This document shows positions 3,448-64,000 of a DNA stretch of 64,000 nucleotides, piece after piece; the first letter of the stretch is position 1, and each line of letters begins with the position of its first letter. The notes beneath the pieces are model-generated. The model had not been told where the DNA came from. It searched no databases and saw only the letters and a program-made list of their open reading frames with translations. The stretch comes from Ginglymostoma cirratum. Its lineage: Eukaryota. The stretch covers positions 35,565,232 through 35,629,231 of the forward strand of contig JAHRHZ010000062.1 of assembly GCA_024137785.1 (NCBI GenBank), written 5' to 3'. The position numbers were made by a program, and so were the translations under genes.

Positions 3448-4250
3448 AAAAGTAATACAGAAAATGCATGAAGTATTCAGCTGGTGTGGCCGCATCTGTG
3501 GAGAGAGGAACAGAATTTATATTTCAAGTCTGAACCTTTCAACAAAACTGAATAAAATTAAAAATGTAATTGGCATTGAGCAAGTGAGAGTGGGATGAGG
3601 GAGGATGGGAAGTAGAATAAAAAGGGAAGAATTTGATAAGGTGGAGGGTTAGACAGATTCAATGACAAATAATTTCATGGTGCAAAGAACTGAAGGAAGA
3701 CATAATGGAAGTGCTACAATGGAAGGCTTCATCATTAAAACAGATGTAAAGAAGACATAAAATCTTGGAAAACGGAATAGACTCTTTAAGCGAAGTGTGG
3801 TGTAACAACAGCAGCTGTGCGAATCAATAAGCTTAAATTGACTATTGATTGATACTTCTGTCTAGAAACGAAGAGAGAGAAGTCAGCTAGGAAGGGAAAA
3901 GTTTGGAGATTGACCATATGAAAGTGAAAGAACAGTGGTAATTGAGAGTGAAATCAATGGTATTTTCCAATTCAGGACAAGAGAAAGGAAAAGCACCAAT
4001 ACAGTCATCAAAGAATCAGAAAAAAAAAAGTGTGAGGGAGAGAGCTTGTTTAAGAATGGAACAGGGAATAAAACAAAAAAAGGAAATATTCAGCAGACTA
4101 GGCAGTATCTGTGGAGTGAAACAAAGTTAATATTATACTGTGTCAAAACCCAGGCAGCATATGTGTTTCCAGAGGGCTTACTCCTGCTCTTTTCTCACCC
4201 GACTAACATGCAACTTGAGAACTGTCTTTCACAGTTTTTTTTTTAAACTC
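3448..4250 (-). mobile_element. Decayed Penelope-like element 3' region, with a second short terminus at about 4060-4130
   Basis: 'gcatctgtggagagaggaacagaa..tttcaagtc' terminus shared with the short repeats elsewhere in the window. The purine-rich 3' region mirrors the element at 10335-12250. Confidence 0.55.
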
Positions 4251-4315
4251 ACTTTGAATTCCATGTTTTCCATTCGGCAAAGATTCTTTGTTAAATGAAA
4301 ACTTGAATTGAGACT

Positions 4316-4694
4316 TGACTCAGCAACTGCACTAATAAGCTTTCTGGTCACCCATTAATTCAAGCTTTCCTTTAGATAGACCATGTTATCTGACTTCTCT
4401 CTCTGAAAGACTCTAACCTTGCCTTTTTCCTCCCCTGATATCTTTTCATTTTCATTCGCCTGGAAAGAATACTGGGAAAGAAACTGAAAAGAATACAACA
4501 AATGGAACTTATAAAATTTGAATTAGAGGCTCAAACAGCAAAGGTATCAAGGGAGGGAAAAGGCAAGGTTAGAGTCTTCCAGAGAGAGAAGTCAGATAAC
4601 ATGGTCTATATAAAGGAAAGCTTGAATTAAAGGGCAACCAGAAAGCTTATTAGTACAGTTGCCGAGTTGCTTGTCTATCTTCTCTTTTTCTCTT
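4316..4694. repeat. Palindromic insertion: about 128-bp inverted arms (4318-4445 / 4540-4667) with a 13-bp flanking direct repeat
   Basis: The arms read as reverse complements with scattered mismatches. Flanks are ttgaattgagact (4303-4315) and ttgaattgaaact (4695-4707). Confidence 0.85.
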
Positions 4695-5039
4695 TTGAAT
4701 TGAAACTGTATTTTTTTAAAAGTGAAATGTTCCCTTTCATTAAAATCTGGTTAGTTCTATTTGATCATCAGGGGTCTTTCCCCCTTAAGCTTCAGATGAT
4801 GAGCCAACATTACCTGTTAACCATCATCTCCTCCTTCACCGTTTACTCTTCCATAGTCTTCAAATGACCTTTTGTCTCAAAGCACCAAAAAGCAAGACCA
4901 CGCTCCAAAATGGCCTGCGCCCTATAGGTACTGATATTTATTTGCTACAAATAAAGAAGAAATGTTTAAATTCTGGAAGATTCCAGTGAATCTGTTTTAC
5001 ATGGCAAAGTTTGGTTCTGATCCTAAATGAATCCTAACT

Positions 5040-5492
5040 TTGTTATTTATTTTATTCAGTCATGGGACATGGCGTCACTGGCTAACCAGTATTTCTTGCC
5101 CGTCCCTAGTTACCCTTAAGAAGTGGTGGTTAACTGCCTTCTTGAATTGTTGCAGTCCACATGCTGTAGGTGAGTGATTGATATAACTGAGTGGCTTTCT
5201 AGGCCATTTCAGAGGGCAGTTGAGAGTCAACCACATTGCTGTGGGTCTGGTGTCACACGTAGGTCAGACCAGGTGAGGATGGCAGATTTCCTTCCCTGAA
5301 GGGCATTAGTGAACCATATGGGTTTTTCCAGCAATCAACAATGGTTTTATGGTTATCACTAGATTCTTAATTCCAGATTTTCTTATTGAATTATAATCTG
5401 CCATAGCAGGATTCAAGCCTGGGTCCCTAGAACATTAGTTGAATTTCTAGGCTAATCGTCTAGTAAGTGATAATATCACTAGGCCATCGCTG
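5040..5492 (-). mobile_element. tRNA-derived SINE with a LINE-derived 3' tail
   Basis: The minus-strand head has A-box-like 'tggcctagtga' and B-box-like 'gcttgaatcc'. The tail (5040-5170) resembles the LINE 3' end at 41329-41455. Confidence 0.8.
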
Positions 5493-5759
5493 CTGCATTG
5501 TTATGATTCCCCATGCAGACCAGTCACCTGAAACAATTGAACTTTGCCAAGATCCCAATGGAAAAACTGACAAACAAGGTTTTTCTTTTATAATCTTTAC
5601 TTTGTCAAGCCAAAGTCGTTTAACAGGCACACCGTTGTCACCATGAACTATAAATTGCACTTTATATAGCCAAGACAACGAATATATATCTCGCTGATAT
5701 ACTGGCAATCTCTTTAGCTCATATGGAGAAAGAACGTTCAGCCATGATGTCCTTTTACT

Positions 5760-5928
5760 AAATAAAAACCAAAAGAACCGTGAATGCTGTAAATCAGAAA
5801 CAAAAACAGAAAAAAATTGTTGACTGGCAGCATTTGAGGAAGGGTCACTCAACCCGAAATGTTTACTCTGATTTCTCTCCATAGATGTTGCAGGCATGCT
5901 GAGCTTTTTCAGCATTTTCTGTTTTTGT
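5760..5928. mobile_element. Short Penelope-terminus insertion (family A) with inverted ends and a decayed hammerhead on + at about 5834-5868
   Basis: TSD tccttttact (5750-5759 / 5929-5938); motif tTGAGGAAGGGTCactcAACCCGAAATGTT. Confidence 0.8.
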
Positions 5929-6790
5929 TCCTTTTACTGCTTTGTTTTCTTCAGATGCAATTTAGCAGTTTTCCTTCACACAGAATTTGGCCATCTAGTT
6001 GCCTCTGGGAGCATTTGTTTTCAACCCTGTCCTTGGAACTCAGATTATCACCGGAAGGCCATACTCCTCAGCTCAGCTGTTTGCATTCATGATGGCATGG
6101 TTTTCCCAAAACCACTGAAGTAGCGATCGTAACCTTATTTCACTATTCCTGATACTAAATTCAATATCCATGGCTCATTATTTCCAGATATCCCACACAC
6201 ACACACAACCCTCTACAGTCTGCCTCTTGACGTCTTGCTGAAATCTGATCTCTGAGAATTCTTTACTTGTATCCAAAAAGAAAACACATTCTCTGTTTCT
6301 TCAGCATTATGAGGTGCCAAAGTCAATTTCCCCGAAGTCTGCTGCCATAGCCACGGACCTACATTTATTACCTTCTTTTTCCCAGAAACTGACTTCCAGT
6401 TTTACCTTGTCAGGGACTGTCTCTCAAAATGCAATCTTTGAAACCAAAGTTAGTCCACGCAACTGCCCATTTAATTTTCCACAGAGCAGATTTCATCTCA
6501 TTACTCAGCACCACTGGAAAAACCTACATTACACAGATTACGATGGTTGAAGAAGATGGCTAGCTCATCACCTATCCTGTCAAGCAGCTAAGGCAGGGCA
6601 GGAGATGCCTATATCCCTTGACCAAATATAAAAATGAGAGAACGCAGAAAGGATACAGTATCCCTTTAAGATCTGCATCTCCACTTTACAAAGGCCTCTT
6701 CCCAGTTTATTAGGAAACATAATGCCTCCTTCAATGAAGGCAGTGTCCAGGTTTAAGTCAAACACGAGGAACTGGATAGAAGATGAATAG

Positions 6791-6891
6791 AAACCAAAAT
6801 AACGTTTCTGGACCCGATGTGTTAACTCTGACTTTTCTCCACAGATGCTGCCAGACCTGCTGAGCTTTTCCAGCATTTTCTGCTTTTGTTG
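6791..6891 (+). mobile_element. Short Penelope-terminus insertion (family A), broken within hammerhead stem II
   Basis: 14-bp TSD tagaagatgaatag (6777-6790 / 6892-6905); body 'gttaactctg..cacagatgctgccagacctgctgagcttttccagc'. Confidence 0.85.
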
Positions 6892-9346
6892 TAGAAGATG
6901 AATAGGTTCATTTCGTGCGAGATCCTTTCAGCAAGCAGAACGTCGTCCCATCAGCCTAGACTGACTCCCACTTCACCAGGCGATAGAACACACTCTCTAA
7001 CTTATAACGTCACACTGTCCTTCTTGTGACTTAGTATTAATCTCTTTCACTGCTTGGAACAATGGCAGGGATGTAATCACAATGTGACGAGTTGTCACTC
7101 AGAAGTGTGATACTTCATTTCATCTGATTGAAATTACTGGAGGAGCTGTTGTAATAGCTGCACCCTACAGCTGTTAAAGCTTTGCTGAAATTTTTTAAAA
7201 ATTATATATTTTTCTACAAAAAAAACTGTAGCTCATATTTTCCGTGCCTGAAGTGCAAGTAAAACACTGCTGAAAAATGTACACTATCACTATCTTAAAA
7301 TAAAAATAAGTAAGTTAATGTGTTGATTGGAGCACGGCATTAGCATTTAGTCAGCTTGAATCCAGTGTGTTTTTCATGTCTTTCTTGTTGACCAAGTTTT
7401 TCTGTGTTTCAATCGTTTCCTGTTATTGTTTTAAACCTGAAGGTGGTTGCACTGGTAAAGTTCAATGTGCGTTCCTGATGATCCTCCTTCATGGGCAGCA
7501 AATGTCATCATAACTTCAGATTGAAATCACAGACCGGAATATTAACCTTCCAATAAAGCATCAAACTGGGAAGACTGATGTAAATTCACATGACAGCTGG
7601 CTTAAATTTATCATCTAGATTCTGTTAATGTTACACCTCAGGGTATTTCCCCTTTTACAAGTTTGATCAAAATGGACAGACAAATAAATGAGCCGCATAA
7701 TTCAACTGAGGATTCTAATATCATCAGCAATATTTAATGTCTCAGTACGAAGGTAACCTGTTTCCAATGATTATATATCCATCAGCCAAATTATAAATTA
7801 GCAAGATAGACTATTTGAGTCCTCACAGTGATGGTGTAGTGTGCTCTGAGTGTCATCACTGCAGGAAGGGACTGCAATCGCCGTTAGCTCCATCCCTCCA
7901 CTCATGTGAGTTTTTCCACTTTGGACATCGCAGAGAAGAGAGCCATCTGTTGTCTTCAAGAAGAAGTGTTTCTCTGAACTACTCCATATCTCCTTATAGC
8001 TCAGTTCACTCCACTTTTCCTAGACATTCATAAGAAGTTCATCAAAACTTTTGCAAGGGTGAACAGTGGGGTAGAGACGCTTACAACAGAGAAATAAAGA
8101 AAAATGCAGAAGAAACTTTTTCACTGTAAACATCTACAAAAAGAAAACCTTAATTTAACTGAACGATGATGTTCAGAAATAACTGACACTGAGGCTCAGT
8201 TTGATTATTTCAGCTTGGGAAATGCCGCATGGTACTTAAGAAAATGAAACTTCTGTTAAGTAGTTTGTTGCATATTTCTCCAGCCTAAAAATGTGCTTCA
8301 TAACTGCAGTTAGGTCATCAGGAAAAAAATCATGGAGTGGAATTTGGAGCCTTCTCCCCAGTGAAAATGTGATCCAAGTGTTCCAAAAATGTTGGGAATG
8401 ACGAGCTGCTCTGTACTTGCTGTTCTTATGGCCGCAGTAGTCTCTTTGCTCCATACAATCAGACACCATGAAAACAAAATCTACCCTTCTGCCTTTACTG
8501 TCACAAATTTGAGAGATCTTTTTCAAGTTCATTTCAGGTTACCAAAAATTAATGCCTTGCTGCCAGTCATTGATTGAATTCCAAATTACAAGCTTGACTT
8601 GGAGTTTTCCTTCTGTTTGAAAGCAAGCACTTTGAAGATTTTCAAATACAAAAGATTGCATGCTTTTAAAATGAGCTGTCATTTCACAGGTTAAATCCTG
8701 CGATCTATCTTTTTCTGAGGACTGAAACAGCAAGCATACATCAATATCAGACATAACCCATTCTACTTGCAGTCCACTGCAGTCAACAATATATAATGTT
8801 CCAGTTAGCTCCAATCATTGTTCTTGACAAAGCAGAGAGCAATGAAGGAGTGTGAACTGAAAACTGGCCTGATAGAAAGAGATATTTGAATGAATTATGG
8901 CAGCTGGTGACTCTGGACATTGCTATATTTTCAAAGAAAAAATGCTAAAACTAATCATTCATTATGCAGTTGACCTCATGTAAACAATAATCTGAGTAAA
9001 AAATGAAAACCCCAAGTCATTTCACAGTCTGTACTTAACATCTCCTGTCTTCTGCTAATTTGCTGATGCAATTTGCACAGATGAACATGGGTTAAAAAGT
9101 ATGCCTGTGGTATATTCAGCTGCATTATATCAACATTGTTTTCATTTTCTGCTGTTTGTGAGCAGCAACATGCAGTGTATTTACCTGCTTCTGGGCAGGA
9201 GTATTTTCAGTCATATAAACAGACCCTTCAGTCTTACTAGTCCGTGCCAATCCTGTTCCCAAGCTAAACAAGTCCCACCCTCCTGCACTTGGCCCAACTT
9301 CCTCCAAATCTTTCCTATTCATGAACCAAACAAATGTCTTTTAAAT

Positions 9347-9482
9347 AAAAACCGAAAGAACTGCAGACGCTGTTAATCAGGAACAAAAACAAAGTTGCTG
9401 GAAAAGCTCAGCAAGTCTGGCAACATTTGTGATGGGAAAAACAGAGTTAACGTTTCAGGTCCGGTGACCCTTCCTCAGAACA
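9347..9482 (-). mobile_element. 136-bp hammerhead-bearing Penelope-terminus element (family A)
   Basis: Perfect 15-bp TSD aaatgtcttttaaat (9332-9346 / 9483-9497). Confidence 0.9.
9446..9481 (-). ncRNA. Minimal type I hammerhead ribozyme motif, core intact
   Basis: Minus strand reads GUU CUGAGGA A GGGUC accg GACCU GAAAC GUU AAC: stem I GUU/AAC, 5-bp stem II, and palindromic AACGUU in place of stem III. Confidence 0.8.
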
Positions 9483-13015: not shown

Positions 13016-13336
<321 letters not shown>

Positions 13337-14321: not shown

Positions 14322-14427
14322 CTGTTCTGAATAAGAGTCACTGGACCCAAAACATTCAACTGTGCTTTCTCTCCACAGATGCTGCCAGTCCTGCTGAGTT
14401 TTTCCAACAATTTCTGATTTTGTTCCC
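14322..14427 (+). mobile_element. Short Penelope-terminus copy (family A-like) starting at a decayed hammerhead
   Basis: gttctgaataagagtcactggacccaaaacattcaac...cacagatgctgccagtcctgctgag. Confidence 0.75.
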
Positions 14428-17609: not shown

Positions 17610-18256
17610 TCTCTAATGAGGTGCTTCTTGTCTGAGAGTAACAAAATGTCACCTGCCAAAATTTATTATATTCACAAGTAATGAGCACACAAAAGAAACT
17701 TAACTAAATCAACGCATACATTAACCTCAAAGTCACTACAGAACATGAAAAAAATGCAGAGAGGCAACAGATATGAACCTGTTGGGAGCAAAAGATAATC
17801 GATCATAAAACTAACAGGTAACCTCAGTAAATGAAAGCAGAACGTGCCACGTAGCTTTTATCATTTTAGGTGAGTATCAACTAGTCAGACATACTGTGCT
17901 GCCAGTAAGGAAAACATATGTTCTATTCAAATTGACTCTTTCCACGAATAGGAAGTGAAGGCAATTATAGGTACATTGTGATCTTTATATAATTTGAGAG
18001 TAGTTAATAGCTATTCCATTTCTACTAATGAAAGGTGAGTCTAGAGAATTAATAATGGACTATTGACAGCAGTATCCTGTCGAAAGTCAGTAAATAGGAA
18101 GAGTTTCTCCAAAGCTAAAGTTTGCCAACAGAAGGCGATCAAATGCAAGTTTTAAGTGAATCACTTGTGAAAATGCTCCACAAAATAAACCTTAATGCAT
18201 AGGAATTAATGAACATTGATGTGGGTCAGGAAAAGCAATTCAAAAACAAAATAGCC

Positions 18257-18359
18257 CTGAGGAAGGGTAATACCCGAAACATTGACTGCTCCTTTCCTCC
18301 AGATGCTGCCTGGCTTGCTGTGTTCTTCCAGCCTCCTGTTTGTCTACCTTGGATTCCAG
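18257..18359 (+). mobile_element. Short Penelope-terminus element beginning exactly at the hammerhead core
   Basis: Starts CTGAGGAAGGGTaatACCCGAAACATTGAC; imperfect flanking repeat caaaaacaaaatagcc / caaaaatcaaaacagcc. Confidence 0.8.
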
Positions 18360-18812: not shown

Positions 18813-19009
18813 GAGATAATAAGAACTGCCGATGCTGGAGTCAGAGATAACACAGTGTGGAGCTGGAGGAACACAGCAGGCCAGGCAGCATCAGAGGGGC
18901 AGGAAAGCTGACATTTCGGGTTGAGACCCTTCCAACCCAAAATGTCAGCTTTCCAGCTCCTGTGATGCTGCCTGGCCTGCTGTGTTCCTCCAGCTCCACA
19001 CTGTGTAGT
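18813..19009. mobile_element. Fold-back Penelope-terminus element (family B) with 74-bp inverted arms
   Basis: Arms 18850-18923 / 18933-19006 with a 9-nt spacer; 10-bp TSD ctctatttaa (18803-18812 / 19010-19019). Confidence 0.9.
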
Positions 19010-20077
19010 CTCTATTTAATTTGTTATTGCATCACTTTCAAATCTCCCTTCAACATGTATGGAGTCAGTCTGAAGATTCTAGTACAAAAGTCTTTTTGAA
19101 AAAACATGTACATTTGAAGAACTATTTCCAACAGCAATCTAACTTGACTGTATTCATTGAGATATTGTTTTAGTCATACCCCGTAATAGCTTGATTTGAT
19201 TGATGAAGGCAGGGTAGTGAATTGTGAAATCAAATTTGCTTCACAATGGAGAAGTCTAGAGATTACAATTACTAGGATCTGACAGCCTTTTATTAAGGAA
19301 GCACCAGCTTCACTCTTGAGGAGACAGCAACCATGTCTCTCAGTATCAACAACATATGCAAATGGGAGTTTTGGTGCTAAATGACTCATCATGCAATTTG
19401 TGTTATCATATCATACTTTTAGCTTAATGTCGAGAAAAATTCCTAAATACTTCATAATTACTTAATTAAGTAGTACGCCAGGTTTGTAACGCACTGTGTA
19501 CTTATAACCTGGGCTAGTAAAAGTGATGAGACATCTGAAGTTTTGTCGTACCTTGCGTCCTGTTGTCACTCCGAAGTGTAATTTCTGCAGCAAAGTAAAT
19601 GTCTGAAATAGGTAAACTCCGAAGTTTCTTGCACATATTACTGATTCAACACCACTTCATAATATAAAATGGTGGCAATTCACGTAGGCCAGAGATTTCC
19701 CACTGGGGGCAGGTAAATATGCAGAATCTACAGCTGTGCTCTTTCAAAGAGGTTCCCACAATTGGTTAATAACCTTTGTAGGACCCTTCTCGATTCCTGA
19801 TCCTCATTTGGTTGGCTAGACAGAAAATGCATTTCCCTTTTCCACACAGCTACCTCCTTCATGGGGCAGGGTAAAATATCAGAAGGTCAGTCCTCGTCTT
19901 TGTCTCCCTTCAACTCCCCCCCCCAACACCCACTAAATTCTGAACAATAGCTCAAGGGCAGTAAAGGAACCAGGGTGATTTTAAATGCTCATCTGTTTGG
20001 TTTCTACTGGGATCTAAGGATTAAAATCACACTGTTCTATTTCACGATGTTTCTGTAGCAACTATTAACAGATTCAA

Positions 20078-20209
20078 ACCAAAAGAACTGCGGGTGCTGT
20101 GAATCAGGAACAACAACAGAAGTAGCTGGAAAAGCTCAGCAGGTCTGGCAGCATCTGTGAAGGAAAAGTCAGAGTTAACGTTTTGGGTCTGGTGACCCTT
20201 CCTCAGAAC
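20078..20209 (-). mobile_element. 132-bp hammerhead-bearing Penelope-terminus element (family A)
   Basis: 12-bp TSD taacagattcaa (20066-20077 / 20210-20221). Minus strand reads AGUU CUGAGGA A GGGUC acca GACCC aAAAC GUU AACU; the G of GAAA is lost at a CpG. Confidence 0.9.
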
Positions 20210-20926
20210 TAACAGATTCAATGCAGCAGATGACAGGAACTCTGCCATTGCACGAATTGATGTGTGGCATATTCAGGGGATAAACAGCAGTGGAGGTCTT
20301 GTGTTAAATCCATAAAATAAGGAAGAATTTACTTCACTCAAATGCAGTTATATTTATCTCAAAGGAATTAAGTTTACAATTATTCATTGTAGCTGTTTCG
20401 AACTCAGGTTACAAATATGTTTTTGTTTTCATTATTTTCAATCATCATTGCTGCATCTAAGTCCATAATTCCCTTGAAGGGTAAGACACAGTGTACCAAT
20501 AACCTTTCCATAGCTATGAATCTATGCCATTATGATTTGCCAAAAAATATACACAGAACTGCCTCTGGTACTCTCTCACTCTGAGATCAGTTACTGTGAA
20601 ATGTTGTGACCTACAGGGCCAGTGTGAGAGCTGCAAGATGTGCCAACTAAATTAGATTAGGTTGCAGCTGGCATGATTTGTTTTAAGCATTTCAGCTACT
20701 GAGATCCTTTTTTTTTAGAAGTTGTGGGGAAACCTCAAAAGAGTAATCAAACCGATCACTAACGGTTTACTAAACTACTATTGATATACGTATTAGTTTT
20801 AGGAAAATTGTATTTCTAATTATTGATTTCCATTGTACAGCATTACAGCTGCAATGAATGGCCTCTACATTCCTATAGAGGCACAATGAAGAGTTGCCCA
20901 GGGAGGCTCTGATCTGCTGTCTTCTA

Positions 20927-36830: not shown

Positions 36831-38990
36831 TCCAAGTACCAGCTTCTTTAGCATAGTATTCATGATTTTCTTATATCTCTGTGAAGCACCTCAGAGTGTC
36901 TTATTCCCTACATTTATATAAATGTTGTTGTTTCGCTGTCTATTGTTCATTCAAGGTATATCCCCAAAGCACTTCATTTTTTTGTCTATCATAACTGCAA
37001 AGCTCAGGTTAGTCCTGATTGCACATAATCATATTGAGAATGTGATCCCAAGACCTAAATTCCTAATATTGTTCAGAGATTGCAGTCGTTCAAAGGATAA
37101 AGGTGAGATTATTTATCATTAACTGCCAAAGTCATAGTTCACACCCTTGAGACTGATTTATATTGACTCATCACTCCAAAACTATTGGTATTCTCATCTG
37201 TATGTCGATTTCTCTTCCTACGTCACCTTTCTGGATCAGTTAGCGACTAAAATAAATAAAATTTGGTATTGATTCCAATGCACATTTCTTTCCAATAACC
37301 CAACTACAATCCTACCTTTTAGTATTTTGCACAAACCTTCACTTTCTCAAACACTCCTGATGAGAGTCTCCAGCCAACTGAGCTGCATCAAACTCAAAAG
37401 GCAACATACCAAGCACTATCTGTAAACCGTTCGAGATTAAGTGAAGTTAATTTGGTAATTTGAACTCAGGCATCATACAAGCATCTTAAAAATGGTCTAA
37501 TTTAGTACTAATTAACAGCCATGCAAAGCTTTCACCCACTGAATCCTATGATGGATGATGTGCAAAAGGCAGACTAATGACTGATATGTTTATTGGAGTA
37601 GTTCAGGACATTAATAGCCCAAGATTACAATCTTCTTTACCTTGCTTGCTGCTAGTTTTCACTTACTATTTAGAATTTAGTAAATAAATTAAGAAAAATT
37701 GGGAAGAATCTCTACAAAGTAAAGTTATAAGTTTCATCTATTATCTACCTTCCATGGCTTGGAATTGCTAAATTTATTTATTAGCTAATATACAGCAAGA
37801 CAAGGCCTGACTGATAATTAAGTTATATTTCAATCAGTATACTATTTCCAGGACAAAATGATGATGCTTGAAAATGTTCAGTGTATTTTAACAATCACTT
37901 CAGATTAAAAGCCATTTGTTATCAATTTACATTTGGTAATTGCACCTTTAATTAAATATTTCACTTTAAACACCCTCCGTTTTTAAAAATTATAATTGCA
38001 GCTGATTTTATTAGCTCTAATGGGAGCTTAAGTTTTCTCTCTGATCATCAAGTGCTTTGTAAAAGAAAGTCATCTGTTTTTCTGTTCTTCTGAGGGCGTT
38101 CATTGTTATATTGGTGCACAGACACTGGTTTGCTGCTACTACAGATGGCCATTATTAATGTGTAACACTTAGCAGCAGATTATTTACCCAAAAAGATTTC
38201 AAACTTGGCCTGGTCATATCGTCACTCATTGCACAGTTCTAACAGCTATCAATTCATTCCATTCAGGTACATGAATTCTGGTTGACTTCCACATCCTTCC
38301 CAGCAAAGTTTCCAAAGTCAGAAGTATTAACCATACTACTGATCGCCTAACTGATCATATACCACTCGTCAAGTTTTCCTTGAGACACTCTAAAGTCTAA
38401 ATAATATTGCTACTCAAGTCACATCAAATACTGTGTTTAGTTTCAAGAGTAGCTGTATCTAAATGGGACCAAACTACAACAACATTAAGCAAATTTAATA
38501 TAATTCTACAACTAGACATTTTAGTTGCAGTAGTGTCGTACAAATTACACGAAGCACTTTCCTCACAGTTTATCCCACTTTGGATGTCAAGTTCATTCTA
38601 AGTTTTTTAAGTAACCTTAAATAGTGCAAATGCAATTTTTTAACTTTCAAACAAAACATGTCTAGCTAACGTGAACTTAAACATCTAAACTATGTTCCAT
38701 TTGATTACTGCAAATACCATCACCTAACCATGTGGATTTGACGGTAACCACTGACTATTGATAGACAGAAGTCTGCAGTTCAAGCAATGTTCACGTGGGT
38801 GAATGTCAACTAAAGGCAAACAAACAAAAATCAAAAGAAATGTGAGAATATATTCAGCAATCTCTATTACATGTCAGAACTGGTTTTGCATCAAGATATG
38901 TAGAATAAAAAAACTTGAAACTGAACTAGAGATAACAAGCATGGGGCTGGATGAACACAGCAGGTCAAGCAGCATCATAGGAGCAGGAAA

Positions 38991-39026
38991 ACTTGACGTT
39001 TCGGGCCTAAACCCTTCATCAGAAAT
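38991..39026 (-). ncRNA. Minimal hammerhead ribozyme motif, core intact (duplicate at 39257-39292)
   Basis: Minus strand reads AUUU CUGAUGA A GGGU uuag GCCC GAAAC GUC AAGU, with a GUC cleavage triplet. Confidence 0.8.
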
Positions 39027-39131
39027 GGGGGAGGGGAAGAGGGTTCTGAAATAAATAGGGAGAGAGGGGGAGGCGGATAGAGGATGGATAGAGGAGAGGA
39101 TAGGTGGAGAGGAGGCAGACAAGTCGAAGAG

Positions 39132-39231
39132 NNNNNNNNNNNNNNNNNNNNNNNNNNNNNNNNNNNNNNNNNNNNNNNNNNNNNNNNNNNNNNNNNNNNN
39201 NNNNNNNNNNNNNNNNNNNNNNNNNNNNNNN
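39132..39231. other. Assembly gap (100 N)
   Basis: Run of exactly 100 n. Confidence 1.
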
Positions 39232-41328
39232 CTAGCAGCATCATAGGAGCAGGAAAACTTGACGTTTCGGGCCTAAACCCTTCATCAGAAATGGGGGAGG
39301 GGAAGAGGGTTCTGAAATAAATAGGGAGAGAGGGGGAGGCGGATAGAGGATGGATAGAGGAGAGGATAGGTGGAGAGGAGGCAGACAAGTCGAAGAGGCA
39401 GGGATGGAGCCAGTAAAGGTGAGTGTAGGTAGGGGGGAACTAATTCAGTTTCTTTATTTAATCATAGTCATTGTATTTTTGGAATTGTATTACGAGAAGG
39501 TTATACGTGCAGTGAAAATATGATTAGATTTTTTAGAAAGAGCTAAGATCGTTACGAAGTGATGGAAAAGATGTATTAAAGCATTCTATTGAGGTAATTA
39601 TTGATAGATTAGTTTCACCAGTCAGCAAGCTTGCACAAGAATGTAAGATAATTGGAATGAGAATTAAAGAGGAGGAAACATTTTTTTAAGCAGAGTTGTT
39701 AAAATTCTCTTCTGTCACAAACCATTGCTGAAGTAAATTCTATAAATTCTATGAAATGAGTATTTGATAGTTACTTTTACGAAATAAGCATTTGATAGTT
39801 ACTTGAAAAACAGGCATGTTAATGGATCTGCGAGCAGATGAAGGGAGGAGATATTTGCAAGATTGAATGCTTGTTTGAAGAATTAAGTATTCAGCAATTT
39901 TCAGCAAGAGGAGCAAGAGATAGGAAGATTAAAGGCAGGAGTGCAAGACTTAAGGGTCATAGCTCAGAGTTCAAAAGATAATGTGGTAGGAGCCTGACAC
40001 TGGTCAGGCCGTCAGTCAGAAATACAAAGACTAAGTGTTAGCAGCATCAGGATCGCCTGGCTGGAAGCCTGAGTGGCACAACAGGAGTCAATAACACAGC
40101 ATATCATCACCCAGTTACAAAAAAGGTATGAGGATGAAATACATCTTGGGAGGTCGAGCAAAATAGAAGGAACAAATTGGCAATCCGTTTTACGCTGTAC
40201 CCAATTTTCTGCTTCATTGATTGTGATAGTGTGGAGCGTGTAAAACGGGTTATCTGTTTTATACCGCCTGTTTTGCGTTACCACTCAAGACAGATTTGAC
40301 TCTTGAATTTTCTATGAACTGGATTATTATTTATGCTGTTTTTGAAAGTACTACTTCATTGTTAATAACTTTAAAGATTATACCGTATTATATTCTGACA
40401 ACTCGATAATTAAAATAAAAATTCAAATTGGGGCTGTTGTAACAAGATGATTTAAATTTAAAACAGGCAGTCACAAATGGTTGCACAAAATGGTAACAGT
40501 GAGCCTTTTCTATGAAAGCCATTTGCGTTGAGGTGAACACCAAGAGTATGGAAGAAGAGGAAATGATCAAATTTAAATGTACAGGTTTTATTCCAAATTG
40601 TCAGAAACCCTTTCAGTCAAACCTAGCAGTAAATGACACTTAAGAGCAAATTTTGCAAGACTCCATGGAGGCACAGAGCCGTGTTCAATGAGAATTGAGA
40701 TTAGAGATTTGGCATAATATTAGCTCACCTGAGCACAACAGCCCCAATTTTCTGGTGATTAATTTGATTGAATTATTTCGAGTAATTAATCAGTAAAGGT
40801 TGTCACCATGAAGTAGTATTTTTCTCTCTCCATGAGATCTGATGCTCCATCTGGCAGTCCGGTGAAGAGCTGACATAATTGTGCAGATAGAAGACAGTGA
40901 GAGTCACTGCCTTATTGCTGAAACTACAGAGCTAGAATCTCCTTTACACTGTTGAATATAATGAAACCACCATTCCCAACTAGAATGGAGATGTTTGGTT
41001 CATTTTCCCTCTCAAGAATTCTGAGACCACACTGCTGTAGGTGACTGAGATTGACTTTTTTTATGCATAGTTTGTATTATCCTCCATTTACATCAGTTTG
41101 CTGGGGAATTACCTGTTTGTTAAAGGAAGTTGCTGCAGTTTCAGTTACGAATTGTGTGCTGTGTTTTATAGAAATTCTTTCTAAGTAGACCCTGTGGACA
41201 GTTTGCTGTTGTTCACCCGAAACAATAGACTACCAAATAAATAGATTTAATTTGAGGCCTGCTGTTTTCCTACCCTGTGTTCAATCCTTTGGCTGGCTGC
41301 GATTCAGTAGATGCATTACTCTTGCATT

Positions 41329-48764: not shown

Positions 48765-48861
48765 GAGTTAAGAAGGTGTAGAGCTGGATGAACACAGCAG
48801 GCCAAGCAGCATCAGAGGAGCAGGAAGGCTGACATTTCGGGCCTAGACCCTTCTTCAGAAA
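48765..48861 (-). mobile_element. 97-bp hammerhead-bearing Penelope-terminus element (family B)
   Basis: 14-bp TSD agtttagttttata (48751-48764 / 48862-48875). Minus strand reads UUU CUGAAGA A GGGUC ua GGCCC GAAAUGUC. Confidence 0.9.
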
Positions 48862-55946: not shown

Positions 55947-56297
55947 TAAAAGCAAAATAACGTAGATGCTGGAACACAGAGTGCTGGAGAAACTCAGCAG
56001 ATCTGGCAGCAGCTGTGGTGAGAGAAACAGAGTATATATTCTGAATCCAGTATGACTTCTTCTGAATAAAAACCAAAAGAACTGCGGGATGCTGTAAATC
56101 GGGAACAAAAACGGAAGTTGCTAGATAAGCTCAGCAGGTCTGGCAGCACCTGTGAAGAAAAAAAATCAGAGTTAACGTTTCTGGTTCGGTGACCCTTCCC
56201 TTCTGTTTTTGTTCATGATTTCTTCTGAACTGGACAATTCCACAGATGCTGCCAGACCTGCTGACCTTCTCCAGCATTTTCTGTGTTTATTTTGGAA
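55947..56297. mobile_element. Nested short Penelope-terminus elements; inner family A copy at 56067-56214
   Basis: Outer TSD ttaattcact (55937-55946 / 56298-56307); inner TSD atga(c/t)ttcttctgaa (56052-56066 / 56215-56229). Confidence 0.85.
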
Positions 56298-56783
56298 TTA
56301 ATTCACTATTGTCTTGGCGATTATTTAAAGTAGGTGCCAATATTATGGTGGCCTTAAACAGTGCACGTTGCTGTTATTAATGATCCCATCTATCCTTGAA
56401 TGTATGACCACTGTGCCTATTTCCTATGCATGGTTCATTTGTATTATTATCTAGCATTTGATTCTCATCCCTAATGTGGAACTTCATCCACACCAATTGG
56501 CTCTGCTCCCAGTTGCTGTCATCTTGCCTGGAATATAAATACAAGAATGCCCTCAGGAAGTGTACCTGGATGGCAAAGTACTAAACCTGTACAACAGTTG
56601 TAATCAAGTTGTTCGTAGATCTCATTAATAAATAGACTGGGGCAATATGAGGAGGATAAAGGCAATATGTCCATCATTTTTCCAACATTCAAAACCCATA
56701 AGTCTCCAATTTTCTCTGATGGTGAACAAGTGATCAGGAAAACAGAATTTCCATTCACTAAGTGTTCTCGATTGCTTGTGATG

Positions 56784-56986
56784 TGGAGGTGCTGGTGTTG
56801 GACTGGGGTGGGCAACGTCAGCAGTCACACGACACCAGGTTATAGTCCAACACGTATATTTGAAATGACAAGCTATCAGGACACTGCTCCTTCGTCAGGT
56901 GAAGTGCTTCACCTGATGAAGGAGCAGCACTCTGAAAGCTTGTCATTTCAAATAAATCTGTTCTACTATAACCTGGTATCGTGTCA
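56784..56986. mobile_element. Fold-back Penelope-type terminus (family C) with two head-to-head hammerhead motifs
   Basis: 13-bp TSD attgcttgtgatg (56771-56783 / 56987-56999); arms 56827-56904 / 56907-56984. Confidence 0.88.
56910..56944 (+). ncRNA. Minimal hammerhead ribozyme motif (family C)
   Basis: CAC CUGAUGA A GGAG cagca CUCU GAAA GC UU GUC, with palindromic AAGCUU in place of stem III. The mirror copy on the minus strand has GAUA instead of GAAA. Confidence 0.7.
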
Positions 56987-57745: not shown

Positions 57746-58906
57746 AGAGATGGTCAACGTTGCTTTGTGCATGGGAAATTGTGTCTCACAAACTTGATTA
57801 ATTTTTTGGAAGAAGTGACAAAAGATTGATGAGGGCAGAATGGTAGACGTTGTCTGTATGGACTTCAGCAAAGCGTTCGACGAGTTTTCGCACGGTTGAC
57901 TAGTTATTAAGGTTAGAACACATGGGACCCAGAGGGAGGTAGCCAATTAGATGGAAAATTGGCTTGAAGGTAGGAGACAGAAGTTGGTGGTAGAGGGTTG
58001 CTTTTCAAACTGCAGGTCTGTGATCAGCGGTATACCACAAGGATCAGTGCTGGATCCACTGTTTTTTGTCATTTTATACAAGTGATTTGGATATGAATAG
58101 AGGAGATATGGTCAGTAAGTTTGCAGATGACACCAAAATAGGTGGTGTAGTGCACAGTGAAGAAGATTATCTTAGAGTACGATGGGCCAGTGGGCCGAGG
58201 ATTGGCAGATGGAGTTTAATTTAGACAAATGTAAAGTATTGCAATTTGGTAAGGCAAACCAGGGGTACAGGCGCATAGTTCCTTGAAAGTGGAATCGTAT
58301 GTAGACAGGGTAGTAAAGAAGGTGTTTGGCGCACTCGCCTTGATTGGCCAGAAAATTGAGTATGGGAGTGGGAATGTCATGGTGCAGCTTTACAAGACAT
58401 TGGTGAGGCCACTTAGAGAACTGCATACAATTCTGGTTGCCCTTCTATAGAAAGGATGTTTTTAAACTTGACAGGGTGCTGAAAAGATTTACAAGGATGT
58501 TGTTTGACTTGTATGGAGAGGCTGAATAGGCTGGGGCTTTACTCCTTGGAGGGTCAGAGGCTGAGGGCTGATCTCATCAAGGTTTGTAAAATCATGAGGA
58601 GCATGGATAGTGTAAATAGCTGAGGTCTTTTCCTCAGGTGGGGGAGTCCAAAACTGGGGGGTATAGTTTAGGTGATAGGGGAAACATTTAAAAAGGACCT
58701 GAGGGGTAGCCTTAACATGCAGAGGGTGGTGCAGAAAGGAAACGAGGTGTTAGAGAAAGTGGTGGAGGCGTGTACAAATACAAGATTTAAAAGGCATTTT
58801 AATGGGTACATGATTAGAAAGGGTTGAGGGGGATATGGGCCATATGTTGGCAAATGGGACTATGTCAGATTGGGATGTCTGGTCAATGCAGATGAGTTGG
58901 ACTGAA
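57746..58906 (+). mobile_element. 5'-truncated CR1 LINE (RT domain to 3' UTR); its tail resumes at 60833-60865
   Basis: Motifs CLTNLI.F, VDVV.MDFSKAFD, PQGSVL.P and KFADDTK, with frameshifts; terminal 'gggtctgtttcc..tgactgtatgagt' follows the Penelope insertion. Confidence 0.92.
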
Positions 58907-60822
58907 CTCCACTGAACTTATTTCCACCTATCTGGACTCCACCTTTTCCCCCTTGGTCCAGGAACTCCCTATCAATGTCAGTGACACCACCCATGCTCTT
59001 CACCTCCTCCAGAACTTCCAATTCCCCGGCCCCCAACATCTCATTTTTACCATGGACGTCCAGTCCCTATATACCTGCATTCCCCATGCTGATGGCCTAA
59101 AGGCCCTCCGCTTCTTCCTGTCCCGCAGGCCCGACCAGTCCCCCTCCACTGACACCCTCGTCCGCTTAGCTGAACTCATCCTCACACTCAACAACTTCTC
59201 TTTCAATTCCTCCCACTTCCTACAGACAAAGGGGGTGGCCGTGGGTACCCGCATGGGCCCAAGCTATGCCTGGTTCTTTGTAGGATATGTGGAACAATCC
59301 CTCTTCCAAAACTACACCGGTACTATCCCCATCTCTTCCTCCGTTACATTGATGACTGTTTCGGCGCTGCCTCGAGCTCCCACGAGGAGCTCGAACAGTT
59401 CATCCACTTCACCAACATCTTCCACCCCAAGCTTAAGTTTACCTGGACCATCTCTAATACTTCTCTCTCCTTCCTGGACCTCTCTGTCTCCATCTCTGGC
59501 CTCCACCTGGAAACCGATATCCATTTTAAGCCTACCGACTCCCACAACTACCTAGAATACACCTCCCCCCACCCACCTTCCTGTAAAAATGCCGTCCCCT
59601 ATTCCCAATTCCTTCGCCTCCGCCGCATCTGCTCCCGAGATGAGGCATTCCACTCCCGAACATCCCAGATGTCCTCATTTTTCAAGGACTGCAACTTACC
59701 CTCCACAGTGATCGAAAATGCCCTCGACCGTGTCTCCCGCATTTCCCGTAACTCATTCCCCACACCCCCTACCCGCTATAATAACCAAAACAGAATCCCT
59801 CTCGTCCTCGCATACCACCCCACCAACCTCCGAATCCAACACATTATTCTCCGACATTTCCGCCATCTGCAATCTGACCCCACTACTAAAGATATTTTTC
59901 CCTCCCTACCCTTATCTGCTTTCCAGAGGGACCACTCTCTCCGTGACTCCCTGGTCCGCTCCACACTCCCCTCCAGCCCTACCACCCCTGGCACTTTTCC
60001 CTGCAACCAAAGCAAATGCTACACCTGCCCCCACACCTCCCTCCTCACCCCCATCCCAGGCCCCAAGAAGACCTTCCACATCAAACAGATGTTCACCTGC
60101 ACATCTGCTAATATGGTATACTGCATCCACTGTACCCGTTGTGGCCTCCTCTACATCGGGGAAACCAAGCGGAGGCTTGGGGACCGCTTTGCGGAACACC
60201 TACGCTCAGTTCGCAACAAACAACTACACGTCCCAGTCGCGAACCATTTCAACTCGGCCACCGCACCCCACCCCACCCCACCGCTCCTCGGACGACATGT
60301 CCATCCTGGGCCTCCTGCATTGCCACAGTGATGCCACCCGAAAGCTTCAGGAACAGCATCTCATATTTCGCTTGGGAACCCTGCAACCCAAGGGTATCAA
60401 TGTGGACTTCACAAGCTTCAAAATCTCCCCTCCCGCGACGACACCCCAAAACCAGCCCAGCTCGTCCCTATCTCCCTAACCATTCCTCCCACCTCAAGCC
60501 CCACCCGCATCTCCTACACACTAACCTCATCCCGCCCCCTTGACCTGTCCATCCTCCCTGGACTGACCTATCCCCCACCTAAATACCGACCTACATTCAC
60601 CTTCACTGGCTCTAACCCCGCCTCTTTGACCTGTCTGTCTCCTCTCAACCTATCTTCTCCTTTCTCCATCTTCTATCCACCTCCCCCTCTCTCCCTATTT
60701 ATTTCAGAATCCCTTTCCCCTCCCCCATTTCTGAAGAAGGGTCTCTACCTGAAACGTCAACTTTCCTGCTCCTCTGATGCTGCTTGGCCTGCTGTGTTCA
60801 TTTAGTTCCACAACGTTTTATC
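58907..60822 (+). mobile_element. 5'-truncated Penelope-like retrotransposon: RT, GIY-YIG endonuclease and 3' terminus, with two frameshifts
   Basis: FTMDVQSLYTCIPH, QTKGVAVGTRMGPSYA, RYIDD (YIDD at 59345-59356), FLD, KPTD, VYCIHCTRCGLLYIGETKRRLGDRFAEH, LGTLQPKGIN. 10-bp TSD ttggactgaa (58897-58906 / 60823-60832). Confidence 0.96.
60727..60762 (+). ncRNA. Minimal hammerhead ribozyme motif in the Penelope 3' terminus
   Basis: AUUU CUGAAGA A GGGU cucu ACCU GAAAC GUC AACU, about 60 nt upstream of the element's 3' end. Confidence 0.8.
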
Positions 60823-63800
60823 TTGGACTGAAGGGTCTGTTTCCGTAGTGTGTGACTGTATGAGTGGGACTCAGAACCATAATTATCCTAGTCAAAGTCA
60901 GGAGTACTCCTCACTGAACAAAGGCTGTAATTAAGAAAGGCCCATTTTGGTTCTTAATGCTTTTGTTTCTAACGTTACTGTTTTGGATTAGGAAACATTA
61001 TTTAATTTCCAGTATTTCAAAATGACTGTGTACGTGTGTGCTATGTACATGTCTCAGATTCTACAATCAGTATTAATGAACACAAACTCATAGTCATTGA
61101 ACTGTTTTCTGTTCAGTGGTGAACAAAAGCCTCCAGCTATTCATAGCTTCCCACAAGTCCGTTTTTGGCTTGCATTGGAACATCTTATGATTTTGAAGCT
61201 CTTTTGATCGAAGAAGCTGTTAAGAAAATTATTGGACAACGGAATTAAGAGAGAGAAAAATGAATATAAATACTCTTGTTTAAATCTGAAGCAGTAATTA
61301 AAATCTAAAGGAATGAGACTACACACTTGTTAATTTTCAGTGCCAGAAATATCATTCGGCAGAACTTGTAGTTTACTGGGGACCAGAGCAACTAGAACCC
61401 TGATTTATTGTTAACAACATATTACACTTAATAAAAGTGAGTGCTTATAGCATTGCTTGTTGTTAAATGATAAAGCCCAAGCCACTGTATAATAAAATTA
61501 AGACTGTCTTGAGTAGTTTGTTAATAAGTGTGATTGTCAATGGGGCAGTGATCTTGAAAGGACCTGAAAGGAGATCTTTTGCCTGTGATATCTATGTATT
61601 TGATTGACTGTTTTCATGTGGCGCTAGCACTGGGTTTCAATGATACTACACTTCCCAACCATAACTAATAATATTCCTGTTGTTTTGAATGAGATTTGCA
61701 TATGACCTTTGGCTCATTTTCTTGGTAAATGATTAATTGAGACATTAAATGAGGAGATTCTAAGATTCTGAAAAACCCTACTTAGGTTCTGTGATCAGTC
61801 TACAGATAGCTACTGACAGGCTTGCAACATATTCATTTACATAGTAAATAACATTGAGATGTACTGAGGAATTAGCATAAAATTATTTCTCACAAATATA
61901 TCCATGAATTGGCTTAAGGATCCCAGCTGTGGAATCAAGAACTTGAGTCTGATCAGACAATGGTAGAGAGACTGTCTTCTGATTATTAAATAGTGTCATA
62001 ACTGGCAAACAGTTTAGATTTAAGCGCTTAACAAAGGCTTCCCACGGAGATGGAACAGAAATGCACATAAACAAGCATGGACACTTTAAACAAAATGACT
62101 GAGGGAAATCAGAATCAAGTGTTCTCATTTTGGCACTATAGTGTGGGATTTATTTTGCTCTAGAACTGGACCACCATTTATCCTTTCTGTTCATTTCTTT
62201 ATTCCTCTGATTTATGGCTTTTCGGTTATATATGGAGAAAAATTTTATACTAATGAACGAGTCAGCTGAAAGCATATGTATTAAGTATGATCTGTTCACA
62301 CAATAATCCGAAACACATCCTGAAGTTGTTCGGAACGAGACTATCCACTGGTACAGAATAGCATTATTTTAATGAGAAATTGGCATAAAGCTTTGAAGAA
62401 AAAGTAAACATTTTACTGTGTCTAGGACACACAGATGTTTTGGTTGCAAAATTTAAGATGGGAATTATCATCAGAGATATTGTTTTTCATTCCTTAGCAA
62501 ACTCATATCAAGTTCCCCTCTCCACTAATTTGACAGAGGCTTAGCCCACTTATTCCAAATAGATTAGCGCCTTTGTTGAAACCGTGGAGAGAAGATTTTG
62601 ATGGAGCTTTTTAATCATTTGTTCTGTAACATCACTGAGTCATTCACAGTCACTGTTTTCTTTATGATAAGATTTGAAGCAGACAAATTATTGTATTACG
62701 TTACATAATGTGTTAACAAGCCAATTTTCATTGTAAACTTTGAAGAACAAGGATTGTTTAATTACTAATCATTCCAATAAGTTAATCATTTATATCTTTT
62801 AGTGCACTTGTCCCGTCAAGACTTGTTAAGCATGTTGCTGTTGATGGATTTAGAATTTCAAAATATCTGTTAGTTGGTTTTATTTTGTTCTAATGTTCTA
62901 TTGCCCTGGATGTTTATTCCATTTGAGGCTAATGTACTTTGCTTGATTCTGAAAGATGAGATAGTCAAGCTTTTGAACTGGTCTATGTTGTTCTTTATCA
63001 GGCTACATGAACTGTAATTGAAGCTTTTAATGGCATTTACTTGTTAGCTTTTGTATTGTCTTGTAGGGCTTTCTCTCTCGGTCTCCTGTACTAGCAGGCT
63101 AAGAACTGGTAGACATTGAGTGAGAAATGTTACTTGTTAAAGTGGCAAATAGCTCTTTGGCCTTGAAATTGCTGGGACATGAGTGAGTGGTGGATTGTTA
63201 ACTACTTTGCAGTAATTTAGGGAACATCATCTCAGCTGGATATGATAACTTTCAATAAGTCTTTTGAACTAAATGCCACGTGTGACATGAATTATACTAT
63301 TTATTTGAAATTAGCATCTCTCAGATAAATATAGAACTGAAAAACCTTACTTTTTAAACTGAAGTTTAAACATTCAAGGAGTACAGTTTGTACTGAGGTT
63401 AGTTTTCCTAGTTTTCCCCTGGCCTCATCTCCTGGGCACATGATTTAGTTTTACATGTAGCAGCTAGCCTCTGGTATTTTGCCCAAGTGTTATCCTTGAT
63501 CTGAGAGTCTGGGCAGTGAGTGTTGGCTGACTGTTTTGATCACAGGGAGAAGGTGAGGATGAGGGAGTGGGGTTAACACAATAGAATTTAGTCCAACCTC
63601 TCTCAACATCAACGCGCACAATTTCTAGCAGCGAATCAGGAGGAAAACCCTTGGTGTCCTTTTTTCCAAATATAATGTGGGCCCAGCATATTTTACTTAA
63701 CTTAAAATCAACCCTAAGACTTGTGACTCAGTTTCGCATCAATACTTAGCAAATGAACCAGTAAGGAGCAGACTTAAATTAGGTGAAAGATGGTGGCAGC

Positions 63801-63952: not shown

Positions 63953-64000
63953 GAGTTCTGAGGAAGGGTCACCGGACCCGAAACATTAACTCTGTTTTCT
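63953..64000 (+). ncRNA. Hammerhead motif at the start of a family A element, cut by the window edge
   Basis: GAGUU CUGAGGA A GGGUC accg GACCC GAAAC AUU AACUC: perfect 5-bp stems I and II; CG to CA change in the palindrome. Confidence 0.8.

Follow-up and report, generated by a model that had tools for sequence, protein, structure and literature searches.

Minimal hammerhead motifs in pseudo-LTRs of Penelope-like elements of Ginglymostoma cirratum, and where their short copies begin

The region analysed here, 64,000 nt of the Ginglymostoma cirratum genome (the window), contains eight hammerhead motifs that an initial annotation had named and sorted into three families, A, B and C. The motifs are real: 8/8 were found as CUGANGA-A-stem II-GAAA-4-mer, those at 9446, 20170, 38991, 39257 and 48830 on the minus strand and those at 56910, 60727 and 63953 on the plus strand. 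A scan that required the core and a 4-bp stem II, and demanded neither the extra A nor G10.1, returned 7 exact matches in the window and 2 in total in 12 simulated sequences of the same dinucleotide make-up; the motif at 63958 lies too close to the window end to enter this count. The extra A after A9, one of the annotated traits, is present together with G10.1 in 7/7 of these matches. Across the 4.36-Gb genome, exact patterns occur 77,278 times for B, 5,728 times for A and 1,179 times for C, and the reversed control patterns 0 times for each. A comparison with Rfam hammerhead models, which the annotation had suggested as a check, gave no hammerhead match in the window at E<=1, only miRNA-like matches on inverted pairs. 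An exon encoding the BRSK1/2 KA1 domain lies at 13037-13234 on the plus strand (Pfam E 1.7e-27), and the window repeats probably lie in or near a BRSK gene. Elsewhere, 135-nt arms at 4318-4452 and 4533-4667, 90% complementary and 80 nt apart, form an inverted repeat that could be a MITE-like element.

The intact family B motif at 38991-39026 (minus strand) has the stem I AUUU/AAGU, the stem II GGGU/GCCC, the extra A, the palindrome ACGU and a predicted cut after GUC. Beyond a gap of 100 N (39132-39231), a second family B hammerhead lies at 39257-39292 on the same strand, and the two copies are identical across 164 nt on either side of the gap. Both belong to a recent minus-strand insertion at 38929-39436, composed of a pseudo-LTR (pLTR) piece with hammerhead and tail, the gap, and another pLTR piece with hammerhead. 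A 6-bp target duplication, GAACTA (38923-38928 and 39437-39442), borders the insertion. Its empty site is seen in a contig of sequencing run X12 that joins 38913 to 39437, which is an allele or relative without the recent insertion. The sequence of the empty target site (38917-38928 plus 39437-39452) pairs into a 9-bp hairpin, GAAACTGAA ... TTCAGTTTC, whose loop contains the insertion point. Because the motifs at 38991 and 39257 are identical and lie inside one insertion, they are not independent. The insertion is either a partial tandem with a hidden middle, perhaps an ORF, or a single copy doubled by assembly, and no contig of the sequencing runs searched spans the gap.

Upstream of the 38991 copy, a TATA-like box (TATTTA, 39052-39057, minus strand) lies 35 nt above C3, the same position as in 41/46 full B pLTRs, and may serve as a promoter element. 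The predicted start site of this copy, in the initiator-like context CCATTTC, is the A at 39026, which is the first base of stem I. The B motif at 60727-60762 (plus strand) has one stem I mismatch and sits in the 3' pLTR of an element at 58896-60830. The B site at 48830, already annotated as decayed, is part of a short copy consisting of hammerhead and tail (48765-48861, minus strand), which starts 3 nt above C3 and whose palindrome has decayed to AUGU.

Each of the three named family A motifs belongs to a short copy. The first (9344-9481, minus strand) starts 3 nt above C3 and has an intact core and palindrome, the second (20076-20210, minus strand) starts 4 nt above C3 and carries G12A through CpG decay, and the third (63954-64000, plus strand) starts 4 nt above C3, has the palindrome ACAU and continues past the window end. 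Fully intact copies number 0/3, since 9446 keeps 3 stem I pairs. The stem I of family A, given as 5 bp, is the 4-bp AGUU/AACU. Position -5 is C in 6/6 full-length A copies, and the G with which 'GAGUU' begins at 63953 therefore belongs to the junction.

The family C motif at 56910 lies in a short copy at 56908-56984 (plus strand), with the palindrome AGCU and a predicted cut after CUU. Its stem I does pair, but CAC/GUC provides only 2 pairs; the family majority has GUG. An inverted partner lies head-to-head at 56777-56906 (minus strand), and its core has decayed (GAUA). The division of the window motifs into A, B and C stands, but it missed a fourth family and several decayed copies. This fourth family, F, is represented by a hammerhead at 18253-18349 (plus strand) with the stem II GGGU/ACCC, starting 4 nt above C3. 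Family B pieces form a head-to-head pair at 18813-19012 and are truncated within the motif. Decayed short copies lie on the plus strand at 5835-5933 (A-type) and at 14324-14426 (A-like, starting 3 nt above C3), and a family A copy truncated within the core lies at 56065-56199 on the minus strand.

Family B has a weak, subfamily-dependent stem I of 2-4 pairs. The palindrome ACGT or its CpG decay products occur in 74/95 core matches that were not selected for the palindrome, and AGCT occurs in 17/17 clustered C copies, most of them fetched with AGCT in the search pattern. Stem II is closed by G10.1-C11.1 in A, B, C and E, with G-U through CpG decay in some copies. The unpaired base between 9 and 10.1 is A in the same four families and U in the majority of family D. 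By family majority, the predicted cuts fall after GUU in A, GUC in B and CUU in C, in agreement with the annotated predictions. Family D hammerheads have a 6-bp stem II, U or C as extra base, and TGCA/TGCA as stem I; copies were found at L233:744-785, L151:7959-8000, L245, L225 and L058:4426. In the last of these loci, two intact family B motifs also stand in direct tandem at a distance of 94 nt (L058:230 and 324, minus strand), which is a ready-made natural dimer substrate for cleavage assays.

On sequence grounds, the motifs are minimal type I hammerheads of the pLTRs of Penelope-like elements (PLEs), and the Penelope association made in the initial annotation is upheld. The B motif at 60727 sits at the 3' end of a 5'-truncated, frameshifted PLE (58896 to 60823-60830, plus strand) comprising RT, a CX4CXXC linker, a C-terminal GIY-YIG domain, pLTR and tail. 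Its domain matches are weak, with GIY-YIG at E 0.0015, under the curated cut-off. The RT-EN linker in its frame reads CNQSKCYTC, a motif type common to Neptune and Nematis in the available text of PMC8557442. A search of longer proteins returned 49 homologs, with RVT_1 in 47/49 and GIY-YIG in several. In fetched loci, motifs of families A and E lie about 390-590 nt below PLE endonuclease matches. In L098, the family C motif is preceded by a degenerate PLE-like frame (tblastn E 2e-5), and the link of C to PLEs appears weaker than those of A, B and E.

A near full-length B element (L305, 345-592) leads from the tail through a 38-nt leader into an open frame that has reached 902 codons where the locus ends and that matches RVT_1 (E 5.7e-8); its 5' pLTR is without the TATA-hammerhead segment. 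None of 10 long copies has an intact pLTR-ORF-pLTR arrangement. The element layout comprises a pLTR with a TATA-like box, the hammerhead and a tail of about 100 nt, a short leader, an ORF that encodes RT and GIY-YIG in no fewer than 890 aa, and a pLTR. The long frame has its first ATG about 165 nt below C3. Copies end at two peaks, near +92 and +126 from C3 (about 33 nt apart), which resemble the 30-40-bp PLE tail, and pairs in the genome sample described below are oriented head-to-head in 22 cases and tail-to-tail in 5. Two 3' ends and head-to-head inverted copies are known PLE traits, as far as the available texts of PMC8557442 and PMC11167929 go.

Stems that vary in sequence and keep pairing were among the annotated observations. 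Covariation was assessed on majority motifs from 39 A, 123 B, 63 C, 11 D and 5 E copies, with stem I and the palindrome absent from the search terms. Stem I pairs at 20/20 positions over the five families, a score reached by 1/120 permutations of the 3' strands; stem II also pairs at 20/20 (2/120 permutations), a circular result because stem II formed part of the search, and neither fraction is a formal probability because the five families are related. The variation with retained pairing is upheld for stem I.

Decay was analysed in copies found by the tail alone, comparing non-CpG sites of core and tail. Differences amount to 16/757 in the core and 107/4250 in the tail of B (p=0.61), and to 13/246 and 59/1391 in A (p=0.50). 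G12, a CpG site, is lost in 15/95 B and 10/31 A copies. Subfamily-type variants of B affect 0/8 non-CpG core sites versus 4/5 free sites (N7 and loop II), and the sole variable non-CpG site in stem II exchanges U-G for U-A. Since inserted copies decay neutrally and subfamily changes avoid the core, constraint acted on the master elements. Hence, the hammerheads were likely kept functional through selection on active parents, as had been proposed from the window.

Structure prediction adds a different aspect. In A, B and C, the minimum-energy prediction yields a fold other than the active one, and stem I is unformed in the predicted monomer folds of all three. It is possible to draw an active dimer, but its predicted energy lies far above that of the best cofold. 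The motif is predicted to cut only weakly and as dimers. By analogy, the weak predicted fold fits the low or protein-assisted activity that the available texts of PMC4209133 and PMC11167929 give for other PLE hammerheads. Among Xenopus retrozyme dimers, 1/9 cleaved, according to the accessible part of bioRxiv 10.64898/2026.07.22.740005.

The 5' ends of copies were read in a sample of 160 stretches of 10 kb, of which 31 are wholly N, with 1,233,186 non-N bases usable. Duplicates were removed before tallying, and copies whose 5' end reads N (14 in B, 1 in A) were dropped. Runs of N next to motifs in fetched loci were not taken for assembly gaps. Counted from C3, 39 of 141 tail-anchored B copies reach at least 60 nt upstream, 6 begin at -59 to -8, 50 at -7 to -1, 33 within the motif, 2 within 3 nt of the cut and 11 beyond that. 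The corresponding numbers for 58 A copies are 4, 1, 26, 18, 3 and 6. When starts were mapped independently against a long reference, their density was 6.5 per nt at -8 to -1 and 0.29 per nt at the cut, and it did not exceed 0.1 per nt anywhere farther upstream. Short copies become similar to the full pLTR from about -3/-4 in B and A and from about -7 in C2, where the family C edge derives from 29 short, older copies.

This edge coincides with a promoter-like layout, read with the consensus positions of TATA box and initiator. In full pLTRs, the TATA-like box stands at -35 in B, at -33 in A (5/6), and at -37 to -41 overall in C (-39 in 5/9 C1, -37 to -40 in 3/3 C2). In all three families the edge follows the box by about 30 nt, at CA in an initiator-like context, and the boundary shifts with the box. 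The genome contains 39,928 exact matches to the B promoter stretch. In family D, the first 45 nt upstream of the core are free of a TATA box, and by eye the upstream sequence is common to 10/11 copies. Copying in D thus passes through the ribozyme, so that folding by itself is no barrier to it. A G derived from the cap would precede the predicted +1; G stands at this position (-5) in 1,933/8,820 short B copies (22%), which does not confirm the start site, and a by-eye tally of the first 100 short B copies listed gave C 40, A 31, G 19 and T 10. Sequencing depth in run X8 is higher on the tail side, a comparison confounded by the organism and the likeness threshold.

Three other sequence features were considered and set aside. 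A 3' splice site, as in D. virilis, does not serve as a general cause of the edge, as the AG is found in A and E, not in B or C. An upstream anti-ribozyme hairpin is present in A and B and absent in C, D and E. An AATAAA-type signal about 9 nt below the predicted cut occurs in 43/62 C copies, and in 0/36 A, 0/124 B and 0/5 E, so a poly(A) signal after the cut is specific to family C.

The start positions bear directly on the cleave-and-circularise scheme (Cervera and De la Peña 2014), in which dimer cleavage at both pLTRs yields a circular monomer that is reverse-transcribed, and short copies would reflect RT stalling near the ribozyme or the upstream hairpin. We regard this account as unlikely here. 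The covariation does imply that the cutting structure mattered, and 12 same-strand, same-family pairs lie within 4 kb in the sample. Moreover, upstream sequence can pair with the 5' edge of the motif in A (8 bp, 4/1000 shuffles) and in B (6-7 bp; 57/1000 and 15/1000 shuffles). However, starts at the cut are confined to the 2 B and 3 A copies tallied above, the edge of B lies beyond the 3' arm of the hairpin, and C has an edge although it lacks the hairpin, as do E and D. Read-through of the ribozyme in D likewise speaks against stalling.

Short copies outnumber long ones, strongly in A, which could point to separate non-autonomous masters, SINE-like or retrozyme, that begin at the hammerhead instead of run-off from pLTR transcripts; PLE-derived non-autonomous elements are indeed proposed in the accessible text of bioRxiv 10.64898/2026.07.22.740005. 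Such masters are quite improbable in our judgement. By eye, short and long copies agree in subfamily variants and in both tail ends, tandem arrays of the motif are absent from the window, and short copies could not transcribe themselves because the predicted promoter lies outside them.

Very improbable, we believe, is an edge set at the DNA level, through endonuclease nicking at ATT or a fold-back that makes the inverted partner, with a non-catalytic hammerhead look-alike in a binding or promoter role. A cleavage preference for ATT appears in the available text of PMC11167929, family B has ATT at -4, and inverted partners are common (23/60 short B copies, 12/32 A). Nevertheless, ATT is absent at the A and C edges, short copies without an inverted partner have the same edge, and the stem I covariation fits an RNA fold.

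We consider it probable, taking these strands jointly, that the motifs are PLE pLTR hammerheads that were selected in the parents, are predicted to cut only weakly and as dimers, and decay neutrally once inserted, and that the short copies derive from uncut RNA. Polymerase II would start about 30 nt below the TATA box, so placed that the 5' strand of stem I would be the first 4 nt of the RNA in A, B and E and would fall within the first 7-8 nt in C. The element protein may then begin reverse transcription at one of two tail sites, as suggested by the two 3' ends and by the available text of PMC11167929. On the pLTR copy at the RNA 5' end, reverse transcription would run off after about 95-130 nt and give the abundant hammerhead-plus-tail copies, which frequently have an inverted partner. 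From the 3' pLTR, reverse transcription would proceed into the ORF and give long or 5'-truncated copies. The scarcity of copy starts at C17 argues that the template would be uncut in most cases, whereas the 33/141 B and 18/58 A copies that start within the motif are a counterpoint to uncut run-off. Both routes would use uncut RNA, so that cleavage probably occurs occasionally or in regulation and is less likely to be the step that produced these copies. It would require pairing between the ACGU or AGCU palindromes of two motifs, perhaps assisted by a protein, and would remove the cap end or the tail.

We are evenly divided over a further proposal, namely that the hammerhead is the first structure of the mRNA, that the short copies are run-off cDNAs to the cap, and that the ribozyme does not process RNA for transposition but serves as a cap-proximal off-switch or timer. 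If true, tens of thousands of short copies would be a fossil record of the uncut ribozyme in retrotransposing RNAs. The predicted start site and the predicted cut site, for both of which the 5'-end pattern names exact positions, lie 32 nt apart.

Comparison with known systems places most of the anatomy on familiar ground. Every feature in the initial annotation is already described in the available text of a 2014 account (PMC4209133). As in the min-HHR of metazoan PLE pLTRs treated there (fish Xena, Poseidon and Neptune), the motifs combine a type I core, an absent helix III with palindromic 15.2-16.2, an extra base between 9 and 10.1, G10.1-C11.1 and a stem I of 4-5 bp. Another shared trait is that one genome has several covarying families, mainly as single dispersed copies and opposite-strand pairs. 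Unlike that account, copy numbers here are about 10 times those quoted (4,000-9,000), and its available text neither names sharks nor ties the 5' edge of short copies to a TATA box or initiator. In our literature search, neither shark PLE hammerheads nor short copies that start at a hammerhead turned up as the subject of a paper, a weak negative, as the supplements of PMC4209133 may list shark motifs. The short palindromic stem III and the dimer model also recall the dimer-cleaving small PLE hammerheads of Lünse et al., as summarized in the available part of PMC6765202. Non-LTR retrozymes, in the accessible text of bioRxiv 10.64898/2026.07.22.740005, likewise consist of pLTR-derived type I hammerhead repeats, and one chondrichthyan genome was surveyed there; those elements are defined as tandem arrays, whereas the copies here are dispersed or form inverted pairs.

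The promoter layout has a precedent in the Penelope pLTRs of Adineta vaga (PMC3846280), which have a putative TATA box, an initiator-like sequence, head-to-head inverted 5' copies and a 31-bp tail; the available text of that account does not tie the TATA box and initiator to a hammerhead or to the 5' ends of short copies. The layout is not general, because the D. virilis Penelope has a TATA-less internal promoter (PMC2377424). A further parallel is PAc, a Poseidon element of Anolis (available text of PMC11167929), which has a pLTR hammerhead, two internal RT start sites that make the tail, and uncut RNA for insertion. The PAc ORF starts inside the hammerhead, unlike the frame here with its distant first ATG, and the RT-EN linker of the shark elements is instead of the Neptune/Nematis type. 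The function of PLE hammerheads is called unclear in the available text of PMC8557442. For PAc in vitro, hammerhead mutants left insertion unaffected and uncut RNA was the main substrate (PMC11167929, same text). The 5'-end pattern described here provides a genome-scale in vivo argument on PLE hammerhead function, and it agrees with that in vitro result.
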